DNA of 64,000 nt from Iphione sp. A-MEVVRFRX5 (Eukaryota), in NCBI GenBank assembly GCA_976226885.1, contig OZ320319.1, positions 53,568,001 through 53,632,000 on the forward strand, given 5' to 3'. The notes beneath the pieces are model-generated. The model saw only the letters and a program-made list of their open reading frames with translations. It searched no databases and was not told the DNA's origin. Each line of letters opens with the position of its first letter. Position 1 is the stretch's first letter. This document shows positions 3,351-39,636 of this stretch, piece by piece. The position numbers were made by a program, and so were the translations under genes.

Positions 3351-4203
3351 TACTTCAAATTTTCAATAAACAAAGTGTAAGCTAGAAACATTACTATCCC
3401 TCTGACTAAACAACAGATACAAACATTAATTTTGTTCCCTGAGCTGAGTTAACAGTATTCTTATTCTTATAATCCTCTTTTTGGTGTAAGAGGCCTGATG
3501 TAGGTTCTATTATTCTGTTATAGACAACATCCTTTCCATCTTCATTCTGTCTGTGCTTCCAAGTTAACTTTTAGACAACATCCTTTCCTTGCCATTGTTT
3601 ATACTTCATATATATGTGATATAATTGATTATTAAGCATTAATTAATTTATTATAAATCCTCAGATGTCCTTTCCAAACAGTGGATGTCTTTTGTAGACG
3701 TCCTTTACCTTACTGACATAGTTTAAGATACAAAAAAGTTTGACGAGATCCTTTTACTTCTCCTCATTCTCTTCCATAGAGATTTCATTCTTATCTCACT
3801 ATAATGTGACTCTTCATAACCTTGTGTCATCCAAACTTCCTGTAACTTATATATTATTGATCTACGAACTTTCTTCTCTTTGATGACACCAGGGTATACA
3901 TTGTTTTCTTTGTGACCTCGTCCTTGGTGTGGTTGCAAACTCATCAGGTTCTCGTAACTCATAATAATAACAATAATCAAGCCTTAGTAGTGTACAATCT
4001 CTAATTGCTATCAATTCTGATTTCATTATGTTCCTGTCTGGAATGCTATATGGTTTTTAAACAATCTTATAAAATTTTGTGTTGGTTCTTGTTTCTCTAG
4101 CATTTCTGTCTGCGGTAGTTTTTCCAAAATTCTACTACTTAGAGTGCTGAAATGTGAATTTAAGTAATTACCACAGATAACTGCATCTGAGGTAGTCTCT
4201 CCA

Positions 4204-4623
4204 TTAATAATCCTTCTCTTTATCTTCCCAGCCACATGCTTCCTTCAATATCCCCCATTGTTTACCAGAATCATTAGCATTTTCAGATATTTTCCGACTT
4301 ATATAGTCACGTTTCAGGGATGTAATTAACTGCATCACTCTGTATGATAAGGTTTTCAGTTGTAATTTATCCTCCATAACTCCAGACTTTTTTAATCTTC
4401 TTGATGCTTTGTGCTTTTCTCGAATCAGATCCAATAATTCACCTGTTACCCATGGGGTACTATTGTCCTTCCGGCGAATACCCCTCACTGGTGCTTCATT
4501 TTTAATTGTATCAGTTATAGATTTAATTAAAAATTCCCATTTCTCCAATACACCCACCATTGCATAGAAGGATACCCAATTAATATCCCTCAGAGTCACA
4601 GAACCATGTCTCCGTGAGAACAA
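4204..4623 (-). mobile_element. Non-LTR retrotransposon (CR1/L2-like) ORF2 relic, endonuclease-RT linker
   Basis: KKDNSTPWVTGELLDLIREKHKA...LKRDYISRKISENANDSGKQWGILK resembles the PW.T..I...IR.R...K..Y....I.E...D....W..LK linker. Decayed sequence probably continues to about 3400. Confidence 0.65.
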
Positions 4624-7003: not shown

Positions 7004-8046
7004 CAGTCATTCTCTGTCTGTCTGTCCTTCTCTCTCACTCTGTCTGTCTGTGTGAGACTGAGGGAAAGTGAGAGTGAGAGCAAGGATGTGAACAAGAGCA
7101 TGAGCATGAGTAAGCATGAGTGAGAGTATGAGTGTAAGAGTATGAGCAAGGGTAAGAGCAAGACCATAGGTGAGAGTGAGCATGACTGAGTGAGAGTAAG
7201 AGTGGGAACAAGAGGAAGAGAGAGAGTGAGGAGGAGCATAAGTGATGGTGTGAAAGTGTGTAAGAGTGTGAATGAGAGCATGAGTGAAAGTGAGGGGGGA
7301 GCAAGAGTCAGAGTGTAAGTGAAAGTGAGAATATGAGATTGACACTGAGAGTGAGAGCAAGAACATAAGGGAACGTGACTTAAAGTGAGAGCATGGGGCT
7401 ATAGGAGAGTGAAAGTGAGTGTGAGCATGAGTATAAGTGAAAGTGTGAGTGATAGTGTAAGTGTCAGTGAGAGCCAGACTGTATATGAGTGTGAGCATGA
7501 GTGACAGTGTGAGCAAGAGTATAAGAGTAAGTGTGACTGAAACTGTGAGAATGTGAGTAAGCAAGAGTAAGAGTAAGTGCATGAATGAGAGTAAGCATGA
7601 CTGAGTGAGAGTAAGAGTGGCAGCAAGATGAAGAGTCAGAGTGTGAGAGGGAGCATGAGTGAGTGTGTGACAGTGTGAATGAGAGCAAGAGTGAGAGTGT
7701 GAATGAGAACATGAGTGAGAGTGTGAGAACAAGAGTGAGAGCAAGAGCATAATTGACAGCATGAGCTAAAGCAAGAATGAGAGTGAGTGTAAGCATGAAC
7801 AAGAGTATAAGTGAAAGTGTGAGTGATAGTGTGTCAGTGAAAGCCAGAGGGTGTATGTGAGTGTGAGTCAACGTATAAGTGAAAGTGTGACTAAGAGTGA
7901 CAGCATGGGAATAAGAGTGTCAGTAAGAGTGTCAGTGAGACCATAAGTGTAAATGAATATGAGTCAGAGTGTGAGAGCATGAGTGCATGAGGGTATGAAT
8001 AAGAACAAGAGTGAGAGTGTGAGTGAGACTGAGTGAGGGCAAGAGC
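7004..8046. repeat. Degenerate hexamer-based satellite (GAGTGT/GAGCAT/GAGTAA)n, about 1 kb
   Basis: Purine-rich 6-nt periodicity with larger internal duplications (about 7120-7300 vs 7540-7740). It explains the His/Ser/Thr/Leu ORFs on the minus strand. Confidence 0.9.
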
Positions 8047-8283
8047 ATACAGCTGGTCACTGACCTGTATGCCCAAGCAATCAAGCGTCATAGCCCCTTC
8101 CCACCCATCCCCGGCCCTCCGGCAGTCAGTGGCTGCTTGGTGCACATGGGGGCATGCGCTGTCATTACCAGAACAGTGAGTCACCACACATGCCCAGGAG
8201 TCTTCCTGGGACAGCCTCCGCAGAGTCTTCAGCACTCTGCTCTGGACTTCCAAAGTGTGCCTGCTCCCTTGGCCTGACTGACC

Positions 8284-9421
8284 ATGGACCACCAACAGCA
8301 ACAGCAACAGCAGCCACAACAGCCACAGCAAGCGGCCCCACAAGGCCTGCAACTGGAGCCTGTGCCTGCACAGTGTCCTCTGGTGTCCCCACCTGCCTAG
8401 CTGGCAGGCCCGGCCCCAGAGGCGCCCAAACAGCCTCTGGCTGTCTGCGATGTTCAGGCACTTGCCCTAGCTGCTCTGGCACAACCAATGACCGGCAGAG
8501 TCCCACAAGAGCTCCTTGACAGCGTGGTCGCCAATATGCAGAGGTCCACCATCATGACATAGAGGATGCACAGAGTGGAGTCTCTTCTCCAGATGATGGC
8601 CTTCATGAATGACTTCACCTGCTAGCCACCTGGACAACTCCATAGGCAACAGGCCCAGCCAGCCGCAGCCCTGCTGGTACAAGTGGCACAACCCCCAGTG
8701 GCCCTGCCACTGCCTGCCACACAGCCACCAGTTACAGTCCTAGATCTTCTTGGTCCCAGCGCTATGCCAAAGTACTCCAGACAGAGGGACCCAGACATAC
8801 AGGAGTACTCCAGCGACTCCGACAACAATGAACCTGAGTGATGGGAGTCCCGCCTCCACCAATGGCATGCTATCCCAGAGGAGGAGCTCCACTTCGAAAG
8901 AAGCAAAGACAAGAGAGTATATTACCCTGCAACCAGGCAGATGGCCAGGCACAGGAAGCCCTACATGTGCCTACCCAGTTCCAGCTGTTAACAGAGCCTA
9001 CAGAGCAGGCCGTGCCCCCCAACCACTGGTCGACCACATCAAGGACATCTGTGCAGATGCTGCCTAACACTCCTGGCCCTCAGTTCGACAGTGGTCCCTC
9101 AAAATCATTGAAAACATTAGCATTAGAAGGCACTCCTGGGACGACAGCGCTGAGATTCAGAGCAGGAGAAACATTGCTGTTACCATGGGCCTCCTGGCCC
9201 GAGCTGACAAGGAGGCTCTATGCTTCAGATACAACTCCCCCTCTTGCCTTGACTATGATGGCCACGTCTACGGGGGCACAGCCATGCTCCCCAGGTGTGC
9301 CTCCTGTTGGTATACCTCAGACAAATGCTACTGCAACCACCCTGGCACAGCCTGCCAGAGGAAGATATACCTCAACAAGATGGAGCAGAAGCAGCAGAAG
9401 CCCCCTGCCAAACCCCGCTAG
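8284..9421 (+). pseudogene. gag-like ORF1 of the outer element (stops and frameshifts)
   Basis: Starts MDHQQQQQQQPQQ. Includes LVDHIKDICADAA*HSWPSVRQW...SWDD (homologous to LEHIRDAAEEAHATGWDPIKDW...KWDD of the inner ORF1) and a C-terminal Cys/His finger LCFRYNSPSC...CASC...HPGTAC. Confidence 0.7.
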
Positions 9422-9989
9422 GACAAGAATCTGAGGAAGGACACCCCCAAAACGCACAGAGGAGGCCTAGGGCCAGCACCTGCAGCCATTAGCCCACATA
9501 ACAGATGCTGGCCCCCCTCCAGCTTCCCCTTACCGCACCGAATATTGCCTGATGCCCACATCACCCAGCCAAACACTCCACACACTCAGGCCCTCCGCAA
9601 ACACCCAATGGTCAGGAAACCCCGATCCCCTCTTATCCCACCATTGCCCAGACGTGCAGCCCCTAAAACAACACTAGTGGGCCCACTCAGCACCTGCCCC
9701 TTGAGTCCTGACACCATATGGCCTAAGGACATCTGACTGCACAGAGCTCACAATGACTGCACCTGCATGCTCGCTCCAATAACAGCCAGCATCACGCTGA
9801 CAGCCATGCACCGCCTGCCACCAGATGCCCATGGTACAAAGCAGCCCTGGCTACTCACAGAGCCCTCACATGGCCGGCTCTCCCCCCCTCAGGAATGGGA
9901 CCCACTGACCCAAACATACACTGCGGTTGCCCACCTTGGCCACCCAAACAGCATCGGAGCTGAGATTCTGCTCCACGTCCTCCCCACCG

Positions 9990-10286
9990 ACCAGTGGCAG
10001 CTGCTGCTACAGGCCACCATGATGACCAGTTCATCCTGGATGGGGTCACCTTTGGCTTTCCACTTCAGTACGCTGTGCCCAATCCCCCCCCCCAACCAGC
10101 CCCAGCCTGCTTGTCGTAACCACTCCTCAGCCAAGGCCTTCCCAGAAGCCCTGGAGGACTACGCAGCAACAGAGTTGGCCCATGGGGCCATCATGGGCCC
10201 ATTCAAGGGCCTCTCCCTTCACTTCATGGTATCACTCCTCCTTTGTGATGACGAGGCCCAAGTCAAATGGAGCCAGGTGCATCATA
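9990..10286 (+). pseudogene. RT N-terminus of the outer element, left of the nested insertion
   Basis: PACRNHSSAKAFPEALEDYAATELAHGAIMGPF...SNGARCII, a typical PAT/Ngaro RT start. Confidence 0.75.
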
Positions 10287-10452
10287 TAGCCACTACTCGG
10301 CGCTGTAGTTGCTGATTATTGCCAGAGAGTGGTGCCCCCTAGTGCTTTGGTATGTAGGCTGGTGCTGTGCAGCAGCGTGAGTGGCAGTTGGTGTTTGAAT
10401 TAGTTGGAGTGCAGACGTGCAACCCTGACTGTTGGGACTCTTCAAACAAAAC

Positions 10453-11388
10453 ATGCCAGATACTAAGGGCAATGATATCCCAGAAGGCGATATATCTACC
10501 GACATGATCATGAAGAAGCTCCTCGACAAGATCCAAGACCTGGAGCAGAGATTTGATGAATTCTCTCTTTCTCAAGCACAGAAGTCGAAAGGCAAGTCCA
10601 AGCAACCAAATCCAACGGTCATTACAAGATCAGCAGCAGCGAAGGGCTCGACACTCAGGATGACACCCCAACCCTCCGGGTCACTGTCTGACGACCAAGA
10701 TGTCCAAACAGCGGACGTCTAAGTCATGACCAGCACGCCTACAACACAATCTGACCAGATCCTGGCGCCACCAGTCATAAAGGCATAGGAAGCAGGCCGC
10801 ATCCAAGAGATCTTCAAGACCATCTATCTCAAGGCACTAGAGAATGTCGGTAAGCAGTTATGCAAGCCTAACCCGGAAAAATACATTATTTTCAAAGACA
10901 CTAATATTACCGACCTCAGGAAGGCTTCATTCCCTCATTACATCGCTGGTATCATGTCATTAATGCTCGACCTGTCAATTGAAGACCCCGCACAGTACAC
11001 CCACTTGCTCGAGCATATTAGGGATGCAGCCGAAGAGGCCCACGCGACAGGTTGGGACCCCATCAAGGACTGGGTCCACGAGCTGTGGACCAGCACAACC
11101 AATGACCAGTTGAAGTGGGACGACCACCAACGAATCCAGACCTTGAAGCAAAGGTCAATCTCCGCCTACAACAAAGAAACAGCCAGCAAATTCACGATGC
11201 CCACAAAAGAGAACATTGTCCCCTGCCCAAGGTGGAACTACTCTAAATGCCCCGACCATTCACCACATGTTTCCAATGAACTTTTCTTTTATCAAATATG
11301 CCCATTTTGTTTTATTGTGTCTAAAAAACAGATGGACCACAAGATAGATCAGTGTCTACCCAGGAGATGTGGACAAGCCCCGACGTAG
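10453..11388 (+). pseudogene. gag-like ORF1 of the inner element, two premature stops (10720, 10786)
   Basis: Track ORFs 10432..10722 and 10954..11388 share a frame. C-terminal CPRWNYSKC...CPFC...HKIDQC finger. Confidence 0.8.
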
Positions 11389-13464
11389 CCGCCACCCAAG
11401 CAGATGCAGCAGCAGGCGGACTACCGTCACGACTAACAGGACCCAGATTGGTAGACCCCCACAGCCAGTCAGCTGACCACTCACCTGATTCACATGTTTT
11501 CACCCCTGATTTCACCGATATGTCATTGTATGCGGCTCCTAATCATCTGCTTAAATCGCATGTTGACTCTACTGACTCCCTCATATGTTCAATGAACCCC
11601 AACTATGATACAAATGACAACTGTTTTCTTGAGTGTACAAACGAGCAATCCTGTGAAAAACATCAAAGCGTGTCTTGTTCAAACTGTGAAGTCAACCCCA
11701 ATGTATGCCCCATCGAAACGCCCTCCCGCAGCCTCGTTGCAACCCACCTTAATCTCCTGACCTCACGTCTCTTCAATTGGCCTGTGCCCTCCCCGTCGTT
11801 CCCCGTGCACCTGGCGAAAATATACACAACCGTTCGCTCGACAGGTCTCCCTAACCACATGGAGGCTAAAATTCCATTACCCACCCAACTAAATATCCCC
11901 AAATGGGAGGAATTCCTTGATTCACAGGCCCCAGCAGAATTTGTCCTCCTACAATTTATTAAATTTGGCTTCCCTATAGGATTCACTGGCATATGCATCC
12001 CACCTCAGAAACAATTGCCCTACACCCCTAGCCAGGACGATTCCCCCCACCTGAACAAATACGTATGCACTGAGCTGGGCCACATGGCCATTGTTGGCCC
12101 CTTCCACACAGACCCTTTCGTACCTCACTCTGTTATCAGTCCCATAATGACCAGATCCAAGAAGAATTCACCAGATAAGCGAATAATAGTTGATCTATGC
12201 CATAGCCAGGTTAACGCAGGCATACCATCCCACAACTACTTCTCAGTCAATGCTAGAGTCCAATTAACATCCACCTTAGACCTATATAATCTTATAATGT
12301 CTCACCCCAACCCTCCCTACATAGCATCACTGGATTTGAAGCACGCCTATAGGCACTTCCCGGTGGACCCCTTAGACTGGCCACTCCTCACCTTTCAGGT
12401 CCATGATACTCTCTACACTGACATTTCTCTCCCATTTGGCACTCATTTCTCTTCATTATTGCTATAATCTAAATCAGAAACAATACGGCAAAAGGTAAAG
12501 ACCCACTTCCCCGACATATACGCATTTGCCTATCTAGATGACTACATTTTCATCCACCCTGACCCCCAACATCTATCATCAGCCTTTGACCACGCTAAGA
12601 TCACCATTTCAAACCTGAGTCTAGTCCTAGCCCATGATAAATGCATCCCCCTTACCCAGGACATTATCTGGTTAGGGATTAGGTTCCAAACAGCATGTCG
12701 CCTCATGTCTATTCCCCTGTTGAAGGTTAAAGAAACGCAGTCAGCTGTCCAGTCAGCCCTGACTAAATCCACCCTAACCATACGAGAGATACAGTCTCTG
12801 ATTGGCCTTATCAACTTCATAGGGAAGTGTGTACACCCGCCTGCCTGTTTATTAACTCCCTCCTTGACCAGACTAGAAAGGCCCTCACCCACGCCCATAA
12901 ATCCGTCCGCCTATCCAATCAGTCACGACGAGACCTATCCTGGTTCCACAGATACCTCCCATCCTTCAATAGTATATCCATCATTCCCCCACCCACGCCA
13001 GTGCATACAATATATTGTGATGCCTCCCTCTCTGGTATGGGTGCTTACTCGTCCAGCATGTACTACTCCGGGCCTCTCCCGAGGCAGCTACGTTCCTCCT
13101 CTATTTCACAGCCTTTAACACGGCTGTAGCTATCTACTGCCTTCTCACCCCAGAGCACTCCAATAAGTAGGTAGAGGTAATTTGTGATAATTCAGCAGCT
13201 ATCCAAGTGCTTTCCACAGGTAAAACATGGGATTCCTACTTGGCCACTATAGCCAGGGCGGTATGGATGAGGGCAACTCGTAACCAGACTGAGTTACTAT
13301 TCACACATAAGCCCGGACATCTCATGGTTTATGCGGATGCCCTCTCTAGACTAAGTACATCAGCCAAATACATCACCATATATAAGCAATTCTTAAACCA
13401 CAATCCTGGTATCAATAGAATATATCCGGCTCACAACGTGGTGTCCACCATTTTCTCCTTCTGA
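11352..13464 (+). pseudogene. RT-RNase H ORF2 of the inner element (stop at 12465, frameshifts near 12840 and 13100)
   Basis: SPIMTRSKK...RIIVDL, SLDLKHAYRHFPVDPLDWPLL, LPFG, YLDD at 12531-12542, RNase H motifs YCDAS, CDNSAA and ADALSR. Confidence 0.9.
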
Positions 13465-13470
13465 TTACAG

Positions 13471-14438
13471 GGACTTCATTAGCCCCGCTAGCGGTGAGGG
13501 CCATTCGTAGGCAGACTCAGGCTGTCACACAAGAAACGCACCTGAGGCGCATCAGACAGGCAGAACTTGCAGTCGGTTTCTTCAGTCACTACCAATTGCC
13601 CCTGGAACAACTGCATGACCACCATATCCTGCTCTTCATAGAATACCTCTCCCTAAAGACCTTTACCCCCGAAGTGATTGGTCAATATATATCATCCCTT
13701 CGCTACCTACTCCAGGCTAAGGACCTTCCGTTGGAGGGCGTCAACTCATTCAGGGTTTCAACAGCATTACGAGCAGTCAAGCTCACAACACATGTCCCTT
13801 CCCAGAAGGCCCCAATTACCCCAGCAATTTTGGCATCGATTATTGATTATTTGAAACCTCTTGGCCCACTAGGCACTACACTGCAGTCAATTTTCATCTT
13901 CATGTTCTTTAGTATGGTAAGGCAGAGTAACATCGCCTCACGCTCCTCAGCCAAATTTGACCCCACCAAACAACTCACTCGCTCTGACGTAACCATCACT
14001 CCCGACTTGGTACTTGTCAATATTAAATGGTCCAAAACAATATCCAATTCTCAGCCAGAGGTCATAACCCTACCCTCCATCCATTCCCCTCTCTGCCCCC
14101 ACACTGCCCTGATACATATGCTCCAAGTGTCTCCAACATGTGCCCCAAATCAGGCTTTATTTGTAGACCCGGTATACAAGCAACCATTCCCTGTCAACAG
14201 GCTCACTCTAGTGTTAAAAAAGGCCCTGGGTAACCTAGGTCTCAACCCAGGAGAGTTCTCCCTCCATAGTTTCAGAAGGGGCAGAGCCCAGTCCCTCCAA
14301 GCAGCGGGCACCACAGACTCGCAGATATTGGCACAGGGTACATGGAAGTCCATGCCAGGCTCAGCCGCCTATACAAGTAGGGGCCTAGCATCACTCCAAG
14401 CCGCGAGGGTAATGTCCACCTGGCAGGGCTTGGCGTAA
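13471..14438 (+). CDS. Tyrosine recombinase ORF3 of the inner element (open, no N-terminal ATG)
   Basis: Catalytic set R (SMVRQSN), K (WSKT), HSFR, W (GTW), Y (AAY). The frame is open from 13419, and the first Met lies only a few codons before the catalytic Arg. A strong acceptor ttttctccttctgattacAG ends at 13470. Confidence 0.85.
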
Positions 14439-14668
14439 TCCCCGTTTGGGGTTTGGAGTAAAGTTCAAAAATATCGGTCTCCAGAGATCATATGTATGCA
14501 TTAAAAAATTGAATATGTACTGCTGTGACCTCCTGTTATTCTCAGTCTCGAGAGACTAACATGTCAACTTTAAATAAATGCCTTTGTTGTTCTCCAAATG
14601 TTGGTTTATCTTCTTGTGTTCTCTTATTTAGTCTCATCTGTGTTGGTAGTTAACGAACGGGGGCAATA

Positions 14669-15345
14669 ATAGTTGACCTCTCCTTCCCAATCAATGGTGG
14701 GGTCAACCAGCACATACAGAAGGACTTTTTCATGGGCCTACCGGCCACTCATGCCCTCCCCACCATACACGACCTCCTTGCCGATGCCCCAAAGTTCATT
14801 ATGGGCCCATTCAAGGGCCCCCCTCACCTTCACTCCATGGTAACACTCCTCCCCTGTGATGACAGAGCCCAAGTCAAGTGGGGCCAGGTGTATAATAGCT
14901 GACCTCTCCTTCCTAATTGACAGCGGGTCAACCAGCATATACATGAATCTTCAATGGGCATCCCGGCCTCTCATGCCCTCCGCACCGTCCATGACCTCAC
15001 AGACCTCCTCATCAATACCCCAGAGTCCCCCCTCCTCGCCATCATTGATCTCAGATGGGCCTACTGCCACTTTCCCATCTGCCCCATGGACCTGCTCCTC
15101 CTTGCACTTTGGCTCCCATCTGACATCCATGTAGACCTCTCCCTCACATGGCATCATCCTCATGGCGACCTCGCTCCACCAGGCCTAATTGGCAGTCCGG
15201 GACACACTGGCCCTGCCAGCATCCCTGGGCCTCCAGGTCACCAAAGAAAAGCTCCAGCAGCCGGTGACTCAGGCAACCTGGCTAGGAACCGAGATAGACA
15301 CTGCCCAAGGCACCCTCTCCCTGCTAGAGGAGAAACTGTGCTCTC
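14669..15345 (+). pseudogene. RT of the outer element, right of the nested insertion, with a diverged internal duplication, ending in a deletion
   Basis: IVDLSFPINGGVNQHI...HDLL, then again IMGPFKG...ARCIIADLSF...AIIDLRWAY.HFPICPMD...LGLQVTKEKLQQPVTQATWLGTEIDT...EEKL. Confidence 0.75.
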
Positions 15346-15821
15346 ACCTTTAACCATGTCAATTTCATTAACTGTCTCATGTTTGCTCATGTGTATTGAA
15401 TAAAGTTGTCTCCACTCAACTACTTGTCTGTAATGGGAGCGCATGGGGACACATGCTGTCATTACCAGAGCAGTGAGTCACCACACATGCCCAGGAGTCT
15501 TCCTGGGACATCGAGTCCTCACCACTCTGCTCTGAACTTCCTAAGTTGCACCCTCTTGCCTCATCAGCCTACCCCAAGGCAGGATGATGGGCCATCAACA
15601 ACGATAGAAAAAACCATTGGACACTGGGGCACAGCTCCACCTATGACAATGGTTGACTCACTCATGACCATGCTGGACTCTCTTATGCTGCTGGACACTC
15701 ACTTGGACTTATCACAACTAGAGACTATCTGACCTTTAACCATGTCAACTGCATTAACTGTCTCATGTTTGCTCATGTCTATTACATAAAGTTGTCTCCA
15801 CACAACTGCATGTCTGTAATG
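15346..15821 (+). repeat. B1-A2-(spacer)-B2 repeat arrangement at the right end of the outer element
   Basis: B1 15346-15435 vs B2 15732-15821 differ at about 8 of 87 nt by eye. A2 15436-15560 matches 8140-8270. Confidence 0.8.
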
Positions 15822-16411
15822 AGGTCCGGCAAACGTCAGAGCACCCTCCTGCCCTACTCCTTGGACTTATGCGCCTAGTAAGCACTCAAGGCAGGTCAGG
15901 ACACCCTCCCACCCTACCCTCCGGCCTTCCGTGCCCAGTAAACATGGAAGGCTGAGGTGGCTCTGCCAGCTGACTCGAGTGGGGTGGTAGCGGTTGAGGA
16001 GGAGGAGGACCAGCAGTCTTCACATAGCAGTCTCCCACCCCAGCCCCCAGCCTGCAACAGCTGTCAATCACTTCAAAACAACCAGTCAGAGATTTCTCCC
16101 ATACATCTCTTAGTCGGAGGTGATGTAGCAGCTCAGAGAACCTCAGAGCTCAAAGAAGATCCTACCACTTTTACCACTGCTCTACCACTTACATTACCGG
16201 GAGGTTATGCTACAGCTTTTGACTTATCACCACTATGAGCAGCATAACATCCACAGAATATGACAGAATTGAAATGTGCCTATAGCTACATTTTGAAAAA
16301 TATTAAAGATGCTCATACTGGGTTAAAATATATTCCAGAAAATAGATCGTGTAGGATTTACAATATGTGACTAATTCAATACTTAAACAGTTTCTATTGA
16401 CTGATACCTAC

Positions 16412-33944: not shown

Positions 33945-34551
33945 CGCCTTGCCGCTCTGAACTACTGGCAAGCCTCCTTGTTATTATCTCGTGATGCCAA
34001 CGCGTTGGAATGTATGGTGGGATCCAGCTATCAGTGGCATTTACCTGCCACACAATCACCAAATTCCGGACTACTGTTAGCTATACCTCCTGCAGTCTCT
34101 GCTTTATCAGTGAATGCAGATATACATTATAAGGTGTTTCAGTCAGAGAGGTGAATATTCAAGTAGCATTAAGTACAAAGCAATGCACGGGTATGCTTAC
34201 TATGCCAACCTACGCATGTGTACTAGTATCTTTTGCAATTTTAATTCTGTATATGCCCACTAGAGGGCTTCCATGAGAACCCCTAGCGTCGGATACGACT
34301 GGCACACCTCAGTTGTCTACTAGCACTCGGACGGCTCGGACACACCTCGCCTGGGCACTGACTGTTGCTGGCTGCTTATTGGTGCAGATAAGTATTCTTT
34401 TTTATATCAATTCCAGCTTTCCTGTGCCCATCTATATTACTGTTTTGTACAGTTTTGTGCCGTTGTTCGGTATTTTTCGTTCTTTTATTGCCATTACACC
34501 TGCCACAAGGCTCCCCAAAGGTGTTCCATACGGTGTTACCGGTGGTTGGTT

Positions 34552-36002: not shown

Positions 36003-37856
36003 GTGGCAGGTTCTTTATCTTCTTGCAGGTCTCAGTGGAGGCTTTTGTCTCCGGATTCTGAGGTTTTGCAAGCTGTTTCAGGTTATCATTTAGATTTCGC
36101 TTTAAAGCCTTTTCAGTCATTTAAGCCTAGGCCGATTTCCTTTAGTGAAGAAGAAAATGGTTTTATAGCTGATGAATTATCTAATCTTTTGCAGTCTGGA
36201 GCCATCTCTTTGGTGGATGACCCTCCTCCGGGATCTTTCTTCTCTAACATTTTTCTCCGTCCTAAGCCTAACGGATCTTTTCGAATGATTTTGGACTTGT
36301 CTAAACTTAATTTGTTTATTTACTATAGGCATTTCAAGATGGAGACTCTGGAGACAGTCCTACCCCTTCTTACCCCAAATTGTTTTTTAGCCTCTATTGA
36401 TTTAAAAAATGCTTACCATTCTATCCCCATTTTCTCTCCTCACAGGAAGTTTTTGTCTTTTACCTGGAATGACTCTACCTATGTCTACAACGCTTTGCCT
36501 TTTGGCCTTTCGTCGGCTCCCAGGCTCTTCACCAAAGTGATGGCTCCACCCCTGTCTTTTCTACGAGATAAGGGTTTGATTATTGTATCATACATAGATG
36601 ATATTTTGATTATGGCTGATACCTTTGATTTGTGTGTTGAACATGTCAATATGACTATTGCTCTTTTATTAAAGCTAGGCTTTTTCATTAACTACCAGAA
36701 GTCGGTCCTGCAACCAGCAAACCAAATTGTGTTTTTGGGGTATTTAGTAGACTCTGTGTCTATGTCTGTCAGGCCTACTGAGCTGCGTGTTACTAAGATT
36801 TTTGATGCTGTTTCTAATTTGTTGATTTCTCCTGATTTAGTCATAAGGAAAGTGGCCCATGTTATAGGTCTTCTGGTAGATGTTTCCAGAGCCTCTAAAT
36901 ATGGCCGTAACCATCTCAGGCCTCTGGAGGTGGACAAGACCTTAGCCCTGTCGGCCTCTAGGGGTTCATATGATGGTCATATGCGCCTTTCGCTGCCTTC
37001 CCTTGTGGAGTTACGGTGGTGGCTTGAGAATTTGCCTTTGGTTTCGAAGTCCATTCTCCCACTTGTGTCACATCTTCTCTGCACTACTGATGCTTCAGAG
37101 TTTGGTTGGGGTGCTGTTTTCCAAGGTACCTCCATAGGTGGGAGATGGCTACCCCATGAGTCGACCTTCCACATCAACATCCTGGAACTTAAGGCTATTT
37201 ATTTAGCTGTTAAGAGTTTTTTCAGTCAGCATAGGGATGTCACAATTTTTGTTTTTTCAGATAATACGACTGCCATTTCCTACCTTAACCACATGGGGGG
37301 TACAAAGTCTCCCCCTTGCCGGGCGATTGCGAAGAAAATTTGGACCTTCTTAGAACAGCGTAATCTGTTTGCTCATGCTTTTTATATTCCAGGTGTCTAT
37401 AACACTTGTGCAGATTATGCTTCAAGGCGTTTTAAGGACAATATTGAGTGGAAGCTTGGTCCTGTTGTTTTTCAGGAAATTGTTCAAGCTTGGGGTTTGC
37501 CGGATGTTGATCTTTTTGCGTCGAGGATCAATAATCAACTGCCTTTGTATGTTAGTTGGCGTCCGGATCCTGCTGCTCAGTGGGTGGATGCTTTTTCTCT
37601 TGACTGGTCACAGTTCTCATTCCCATACTTATGTCCCCCTTTCTCTATTATTTCTAGATGCCTACTCAAGCTTCAGTTCGACGCTCCATCTCAAGCAGTC
37701 TTGGTTGTTCCAGCTTGGCCAAACAGGCCTTGGTACAGCAGGGCCCTCAACGCAGCTCGTCAAACACTCTTCTTCAGGAAAAGTCCGTTCAACTTACTCA
37801 ATCACAGGGGCGCTCCAGCTATGGCGCCTATCGCCATTATGGCCCTTCTCTTTTGA
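36003..37856 (+). CDS. DIRS1 ORF2: reverse transcriptase - RNase H - Dam-like methyltransferase domain
   Basis: RMILDLS, SIDLKNAYHSIPI, LPFGLSSAPRLFTK, YIDD 36591-36602, TDAS...HINILELKAI...DNTTA, and VDLFAS...DAFSLDW...YLCPPF. No ATG until 36285. Confidence 0.95.
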   Translation: MAGSLSSCRSQWRLLSPDSEVLQAVSGYHLDFALKPFQSFKPRPISFSEEENGFIADELSNLLQSGAISLVDDPPPGSFFSNIFLRPKPNGSFRMILDLSKLNLFIYYRHFKMETLETVLPLLTPNCFLASIDLKNAYHSIPIFSPHRKFLSFTWNDSTYVYNALPFGLSSAPRLFTKVMAPPLSFLRDKGLIIVSYIDDILIMADTFDLCVEHVNMTIALLLKLGFFINYQKSVLQPANQIVFLGYLVDSVSMSVRPTELRVTKIFDAVSNLLISPDLVIRKVAHVIGLLVDVSRASKYGRNHLRPLEVDKTLALSASRGSYDGHMRLSLPSLVELRWWLENLPLVSKSILPLVSHLLCTTDASEFGWGAVFQGTSIGGRWLPHESTFHINILELKAIYLAVKSFFSQHRDVTIFVFSDNTTAISYLNHMGGTKSPPCRAIAKKIWTFLEQRNLFAHAFYIPGVYNTCADYASRRFKDNIEWKLGPVVFQEIVQAWGLPDVDLFASRINNQLPLYVSWRPDPAAQWVDAFSLDWSQFSFPYLCPPFSIISRCLLKLQFDAPSQAVLVVPAWPNRPWYSRALNAARQTLFFRKSPFNLLNHRGAPAMAPIAIMALLF

Positions 37857-38835: not shown

Positions 38836-38959
38836 TCTCATGGAAGCCCTCTAGTGGGCATATACAGAATTAAAATTTGTAGGAAATACGAACTTACCTT
38901 GAGTAAGTGATGTATAAACGTAATTTTCCTATCTGTATATGCCCACAAGGGGGCATCGA
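38836..38959. repeat. DIRS internal complementary region (ICR)
   Basis: 38836-38877 is the reverse complement of the left terminus from 34237, and 38871-38959 is the reverse complement of the right terminus ending at 39156. The two halves overlap at TAAAATT. Confidence 0.93.
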
Positions 38960-39636
38960 TGCCCTCCCATGTATACCCACCCTGATACATGCTCTCCTGT
39001 GTTTTCAGGAAACCTTTGCTTTCAACAACTGAGGTGTGCCAGTCGTATCCGACGCTAGGGGTTCTCATCGATGCCCCCTTGTGGGCATATACAGATAGGA
39101 AAATTACGTTTATACATCACTTACTCAAGGTAAGTTCGTATTTCCTACAAATTTTATACATTAATTGCTTGGTAATTTTTTTCTTTTTTAAATGTTCTCA
39201 TGACTACATAATCAACTCAGGGCTTTTTGATTGGCAAAAAGAACCAGCGATAGAATTAGTAAGAAGATTATTAACATGTGCTACATTCCTCTGACTCGGC
39301 CAGAGTTGTGCTAAAATTCTACCTTTTCGACCCATCCTACAGAGGCATCGGGGTACCGCCAAACTTAAAAAAAAAATCAAAGAATTTTGTAACCTTACTA
39401 TTTTCGGTGGGCTGAATTTTTGCTTCTCTATTCTTTGGAATCACCACTTCTCGGTGATCTGCCTACTGATTTGAATCACTTACCATCCCACCCCCACAGC
39501 TTGGCCACCTGCTTCACGCATGAAGTGCGTGGCGCATGCCCGTTCCTTGGTAATAGATAATGACGTAAATGCACGTGCGTGCCCATCCTTCGGAGAATAT
39601 TGGGCATCTGTACCCTCTGAATCTGATGAAACTCCA

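Follow-up and report, generated by a model that had tools for sequence, protein, structure and literature searches.

The window, by which we mean the whole stretch of 64,000 nucleotides from Iphione sp. that was analysed, carries on its forward strand a decayed Ngaro-like tyrosine recombinase (YR) retrotransposon, and its repeats, its gag, pol and YR frames and the predicted splice sites connecting them are collected in the table below, the outer ends of the element being accurate to a few bases. This copy is dead, as gag is interrupted by four in-frame stops (10720, 10786, 11386 and 11434), pol by one stop at 12465 and two frame breaks near 12830 and 13111, and one B repeat is left; a self-repeat search within the window element found no repeat. 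Pfam RVT_1 matches the window pol weakly and exceeds its cut-off in three intact relatives, and the C-terminal region of pol, for which Pfam returned no match, is presumably RNase H-like, a label given by position and known motifs. Used alone as a query, the window YR retrieved nothing significant from Pfam or the PDB; a family YR profile matched Cre (E 5e-8), and Pfam Phage_integrase was matched by 14 of the 49 aligned members. The gag stop at window 11440-11454 lies inside a conserved D-P-E/D-W-stop motif, within the pol overlap. The older decayed host element or elements occupy approximately 8000-10286 and 14669-15900 of the window, with a gag-like frame at 9026-9400 and a reverse transcriptase (RT) remnant at 14927-15145, and parts of this older sequence are duplicated on both flanks of the Ngaro-like insertion.

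Table 1. Features of the Ngaro-like element in the window, with the evidence for each
Feature	Position	Strand	Evidence or remark
Ngaro-like YR retrotransposon, decayed, nested in older decayed element	10287..14668	+	homology to relatives L031 and L110; paralogous empty site 14870-14920
5′ terminal repeat A1, approximate end	10287..10410	+	matches A1 and A2 of L031
gag-like ORF1	10453..11454	+	predicted N-terminal helix, C-terminal Cys/His cluster; low-confidence model
Predicted shared first coding exon, ~132 codons, phase 1	10453..10849	+	
Predicted splice donor G/GTAAGC	10850..10855	+	GTAAG conservation; used in 11 intron-less genomic copies
Predicted acceptor 1, pol frame start; intron 482 nt, phase 1	11301..11331	+	homologous to the exact joint of L201
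pol: reverse transcriptase, then RNase H-like region	11332..13464	+	stop codon TGA 13462-13464
Predicted acceptor 2: pyrimidine tract, pol stop, TTACAG; intron 2621 nt, phase 1	13449..13470	+	
Tyrosine recombinase (YR) exon, open	13471..14438	+	R 13920, K 14025, H-x-x-R 14265, W 14343, Y 14370
Single 3′ B repeat	14455..14668	+	A2 and second B absent in window copy; relatives have B1-A2-spacer-B2

Family and class assignment

The 1.18 Gb Iphione genome contains at least 120 YR matches of this family, a figure derived from 119 scored of 5053 candidates, with YR identities that mostly lie between 52 and 72%; the sample described here consists of the best 100 loci fetched plus later loci from aimed searches. 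The ORF order in the family is gag, RT/RNase H (RT by Pfam) and YR, the YR acceptor follows the pol stop directly, the recombinase has H-x-x-R and the catalytic Tyr, and in the three intact pol frames run against Pfam no methyltransferase domain was matched downstream of RNase H. The full set of split direct repeats, A1..B1A2..B2, was found in 76 of 141 loci tested; of this set the window copy retains A1 and a single B. A DIRS1-like identity was rejected, as it requires inverted terminal repeats and an internal complementary region and the repeats here are direct and split. The family is assigned as Ngaro-like because the ORF order, the split repeats and the lack of a methyltransferase fit the definition given in passages of PMC9210276 and PMC8547959; this label rests on element architecture, and split direct repeats are, according to a passage of PMC9210276, common to PAT-like and Ngaro elements. 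Ngaro-like elements such as Xenopus DIRS-53_XT (PMC9210276) and Cafeteria Ngaro1-4 (PMC8547959), as far as described in passages of these sources, share the order gag, RT/RNase H, YR, the A1..B1A2B2 arrangement, the lack of a methyltransferase and the H-x-x-R and Tyr residues. The present family differs from known Ngaro elements in that no SGNH ORF was seen and A2 and B2 are set apart by a spacer of 35-420 nt. Nearly every copy forms its own lineage (YR 52-72% identical), yet many frames are open and terminal repeats are 97-100% identical, and the family is best read as many young low-copy subfamilies. At one locus (L152, G000:C22:62.316-62.339 Mb) four copies spaced ~7.5 kb apart are located inside a satellite array, and L136 and L115 are flanked by 15-16-bp duplications, which are unusual for YR insertion and are absent from most other copies.

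Predicted splice signals in gag and ahead of pol and YR

The first-pass annotation had proposed that the recombinase is expressed by splicing from a donor in gag, and all its coordinates were reproduced, namely the ATG at 10453, the donor ...GTCG/GTAAGC at 10849/10850 and the acceptor ...TTTTCTCCTTCTGATTACAG/ at 13470/13471. Both sites are in phase 1, and exon 1 (397 nt) joined to the YR part (968 nt) gives 455 codons including the stop, or 454 residues. The YR frame is without a usable ATG, and its first Met, codon 162 (13902), precedes the first catalytic Arg (13920) by six residues. From 10453 to 13470 the gag frame contains no GTRAG site other than the donor at 10849/10850. The stops at 10720 and 10786 both fall within exon 1, so the window's own fusion product would be truncated; splicing in this copy is suggested by homology to its relatives. 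Donor, acceptor and phase proved to be conserved across the family, which goes beyond a chance agreement and disposes of unconserved sites as an objection to the proposal.

The donor was surveyed in 101 sequences (100 loci and the window). Three of these are intron-less; of the other 98, 88 allowed the site to be mapped, and in the remaining 10 the region is missing or could not be aligned. GTAAG was found in every one of the 88 mapped copies, and the donor codons are GGT for Gly in 87 of 87 and AAG for Lys in 88 of 88, giving a top-codon share of 1.00 for both as compared to 0.30-0.64 in 22 other conserved Gly columns and 0.51-0.79 in 24 other Lys columns. Such frozen synonymous sites indicate that the constraint acts on the nucleotides. 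In diverged clades the upstream residues vary and AG/GTAAG is kept. When the genome was searched with a degenerate exon-end pattern, the next bases were GT at 341 places and A, C or T at 11, the latter comprising six YR-joined copies, three cases of GT to AT, one unrelated sequence and L201, described below. Among L183-L187 and L189 the variants G/GTCAG (L184-L186, three copies on one contig, G000:C6) and G/GTGAG were observed, in which the amino acid is changed and GT is kept. GT has become AT in the decayed copies L131, L132, L195, L241, L242, L244, L246 and L247, whose share is not meaningful as the search pattern selects for non-G.

Ahead of YR, 113 of 125 copies have a clean phase-1 acceptor as the first AG 3′ of the pol stop; most of the 12 exceptions have broken frames or a mutation in the AG. 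Where the spacer between the pol stop and exon 2 is six bases long (n=85), it follows the pattern T,T,N,C,A,G with positions -6, -5, -3, -2 and -1 nearly fixed and only -4 free, a pattern which corresponds to the splice acceptor consensus. Across the family this spacer ranges from 5 to 24 nt, so the offset between the pol and YR frames varies, being -1 in 93, +1 in 12 and 0 in 8 of the 113 copies, and phase 1 is retained in all subfamilies despite this variation. The varying offset argues against the route put forward for Ngaro elements, in which ribosomes translating pol would reach YR through a programmed -1 frameshift and the splice-like motifs would be by-products; a probable frameshift was suggested by Poulter and Butler 2015, as quoted in a passage of PMC13003380, and the prevalence of the -1 offset does leave room for a minor frameshift product. 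The copies with a +1 or 0 offset (20 of 113) include the near-intact relative groups L156-158, L166-167 and L173-175, an open pol-YR overlap is absent in 11 copies, and no slippery heptamer is shared, such heptamers occurring in 4 of 93 pol-YR overlaps and all being different. As frameshifting moreover explains neither the frozen donor codons nor the intron-less copies described below, it is strongly disfavoured as the main route and we consider it very unlikely.

The splicing picture is wider than had been proposed, in that one copy in the genome has this donor connected to pol as well, by way of a second phase-1 acceptor corresponding to window 11331/11332. The pol frame opens right at the CAG homologous to window 11329-11331, in phase 1, and a pol-frame stop is found within 30 nt upstream of this CAG in 93 of 107 copies. 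Gln at this position is encoded by CAG in 107 copies and by CAA in 7, as compared to 46-80% CAG in seven other well-filled Gln columns. The CAG is missing in 28 of 135 copies, 22 of which have a downstream CAG seven codons on, a tendency that is not significant (p 0.08). Slippery heptamers occur in 7 of 135 gag-pol overlaps, and in 34 of 97 pol frames codon 7 encodes Met. The joined copy, L201, is a complete element missing exactly 479 nt, bounded by GT..AG, from the gag donor to the acceptor 1 CAG; it reads through as a single Gag-Pol frame of 773 codons, and its YR acceptor and repeats are all preserved. A donor-to-pol joint pattern for the window's clade gave three chance matches, none in an element, and none of the 71 matches to a protein query spanning the L201 joint was a further copy of this kind. 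The family thus appears to use one donor with two acceptors, the pol junction being drawn from one genomic copy, and pol is probably made routinely by the same splicing route.

Intron-less copies in the genome

Ten genomic copies were found in which gag exon 1 is joined to YR, three (L104, L118 and L127) among the first 100 loci and seven (L136-L140, L162 and L164) by junction-spanning searches. Comparison of L136, L137, L139 and L140 with their full-length relatives (82-98% identity) revealed an exact GT..AG deletion of 2226-2473 nt; the nearest relative of L127 is rearranged, and for L104, L118, L138, L162 and L164 the joint was placed by homology. In a YR tree of 134 rows, made by a quick method, no two intron-less copies were supported sisters: L127, L136, L137, L139 and L140 each fell in a starred group with their own full-length relatives, L104 and L118 belonged to other starred clades and L138 to one without a star, and L162 and L164 shared an open fork, L164 on a long branch. 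As both exons of the intron-less copies match the same relatives, this tree placement leads us to read them as descending from at least eight separate origins. Full A1..B1A2..B2 ends like those of full-length copies, with no poly(A), were present in L127, L136, L139, L140 and L162, and unbroken fusion frames of 428-464 residues from Met in L127, L136, L137, L139 and L162. The intact split repeats and the lack of poly(A) suggest mobilisation in trans by the element's own machinery, and we infer that the intron-less copies arose in this manner, through reverse transcription and insertion of spliced RNAs; trans action of RT has been demonstrated for DIRS-1, according to a passage of PMC7192593.

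The joints share 1-4 nt of microhomology, with 2-4 nt in the four copies compared to their close relatives. Microhomology is expected at any splice joint whose exon end is G/AG, so that no single joint proves splicing and it is recurrence that carries the argument. These shared nucleotides, together with the existence of other internal deletions in the family, would be accommodated if the intron-less copies had arisen as DNA-level or RT template-switch deletions at a microhomology hot spot. The ten events, however, took place at homologous positions in subfamilies down to ~40% YR identity, and every one of them is in frame with GT..AG borders; an eleventh (L201) joins the same GT to a different AG; the other deletions (L063, L075, L109, L124 and L141) are not recurrent and have scattered ends, terminal-repeat artefacts in the automated deletion list having been set aside; and the synonymous constraint at the donor fits U1 pairing. 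Deletion is accordingly an extremely unlikely explanation. The Gag(N)-YR spliced message proposed in the first-pass annotation is thus backed by conserved signals and by ten genomic copies with the predicted junction, and on these grounds the YR splice would almost certainly be genuine.

No intron-less copy was found in the window's own three-member clade (the window copy, L110 and L031), the nearest being L104. Patterns for joints with exon 2 starting in G gave 11 matches, none of them spliced, and the pattern for the most diverged clade gave 31 (12 in the control), of which three were known intron-less copies and the nine new candidates that were fetched turned out to be decayed unspliced copies or unrelated. 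The 450-codon frame of L085 was rejected as a splice, being a merge of the pol and YR frames in a broken copy. By pattern count, spliced copies make up 7 of ~350 sites, which is a rough lower bound. In L104 an insertion of ~230 nt lies just inside exon 2 (~4075-4305, oriented); it has short inverted ends and seems to be flanked by a 7-8-bp target duplication.

The predicted Gag-YR fusion and other systems

The predicted structure of the natural fusion in L136 (mean pLDDT 79, the alignment over the N-terminal part having only six rows) consists of an N-terminal helix at 11-41, a disordered linker and a helix at 106-124, followed by a complete Cre-like recombinase that begins at residue 134, immediately past the joint, and whose fold matches Cre with E 5.5e-9. 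Exon 2 therefore begins where the Cre-like fold begins, and the leader omits the central and Cys/His-rich parts of Gag; the model of full Gag (pLDDT 61, pTM 0.27) is too weak to place the donor relative to a domain border. A conserved ATG for YR was looked for and not found: no more than 17 of 113 copies carry a Met up to and including codon +10, and its place varies among them. In some subfamilies (25 of 125 copies) a Met occurs near codon +27 after the acceptor, which could be taken to mean that the splice is real and its product not a working recombinase but, for example, a regulatory or dead-end RNA, with YR made by re-initiation or from an internal ATG. Yet phase 1 is retained in all subfamilies where the spacer length varies, and the first Met is scattered or absent, being in the window codon 144 after the acceptor, from where the N-terminal half of the Cre-like fold would be lost; this reading has an extremely low probability. 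Since no other start is conserved, there is a strong likelihood that the Gag(N)-YR fusion would be the working recombinase.

It is highly likely, in our view, that active elements translate Gag from unspliced RNA and obtain YR, and probably Pol as well, from alternatively spliced RNAs, each enzyme then carrying the first ~130 Gag residues as an N-terminal fusion. Unspliced RNA would yield Gag and also serve as genome, splicing to acceptor 1 would yield Gag(N)-Pol, and splicing to acceptor 2 would yield Gag(N)-YR with pol skipped; as the spliced RNAs would retain both ends, they would sometimes be copied back into the genome. More speculatively, the shared leader, with its predicted N-terminal helix, basic motif and disordered linker, might recruit both enzymes to the Gag particle, and the Gag:Pol:YR ratio might be set by how efficient splicing is. 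That the leader acts as a particle or target tag is suggested tentatively. Ngaro ORF1 appears, from a passage of PMC8547959, to determine integration-site preference, and a Gag leader on YR could, as a matter of speculation, be one way for ORF1 to steer it. In a broader and equally tentative reading, the Ngaro enzyme set might be produced wholly by alternative splicing of one Gag-derived exon, the leader being a packaging or targeting tag that co-assembles the enzymes with Gag and could explain the target-site role of ORF1 (PMC8547959, in part), and the spliced RNAs might be mobilised as RT-less mini-elements that encode a whole recombinase.

The spliced env RNA of retroviruses and gypsy is a subgenomic RNA that bypasses pol to reach a downstream ORF; in the family studied here, by contrast, that ORF encodes the recombinase, and a large portion of gag would be kept as the leader. 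The present family would resemble foamy virus, in which Pol is made from a spliced RNA and not by frameshift, at a level set by splice-site strength (PMC5035957, in passages on Pol expression). Foamy virus Pol is, according to the same passages, a separate protein without Gag sequence, whereas the enzymes here would keep ~130 Gag residues, and unlike in foamy virus the integrating enzyme would be a YR on its own spliced RNA. For the short gag RNA of plant Ty1/Copia elements, conserved alternative splicing balances structural and catalytic proteins, with the spliced RNA giving Gag and the unspliced RNA the enzymes (PMC5580714, in part), the reverse of what is predicted here. As opposed to the frameshift published for Ngaro elements, the evidence here points to splicing from the gag donor, for pol too. 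A full-text search, with key reviews outside its reach, found no published report of spliced Gag-YR or Gag-Pol RNA in Ngaro or DIRS elements, and none is mentioned in the accessible parts of PMC7192593, PMC9210276, PMC6681497, PMC3783388, PMC3266345, PMC8547959, PMC4157794, PMC12477816 and PMC13003380. In other organisms, annotated Gag-YR fusions were sought by protein searches, which returned only distant YR-only relatives (2 and 10 matches, best coverage 59%).

Translation of the start-less downstream ORFs of elements with the DIRS order has so far been explained by a guess, namely frameshifting. As the genome itself would record processed RNAs with exact junctions for both enzymes, the question can be tested with two RT-PCR primer pairs. 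Were splicing the route, the real recombinase and RT proteins would be N-terminal Gag fusions, which bears on annotation, on the biochemistry of eukaryotic YRs and on how a retroelement without a protease gets its enzymes into particles. Hunting for intron-less copies may also offer a cheap and general way to read transposon splicing without RNA.

Elsewhere in the window, a second and distant RT/RNase H frame is located at 36156-37427 on the forward strand, with 24% identity to the pol of the Ngaro-like family, and it resembles a DIRS1-type element. A perfect 91-nt inverted repeat at 38871-39156, with related arms at 34237-34316, is probably a MITE.
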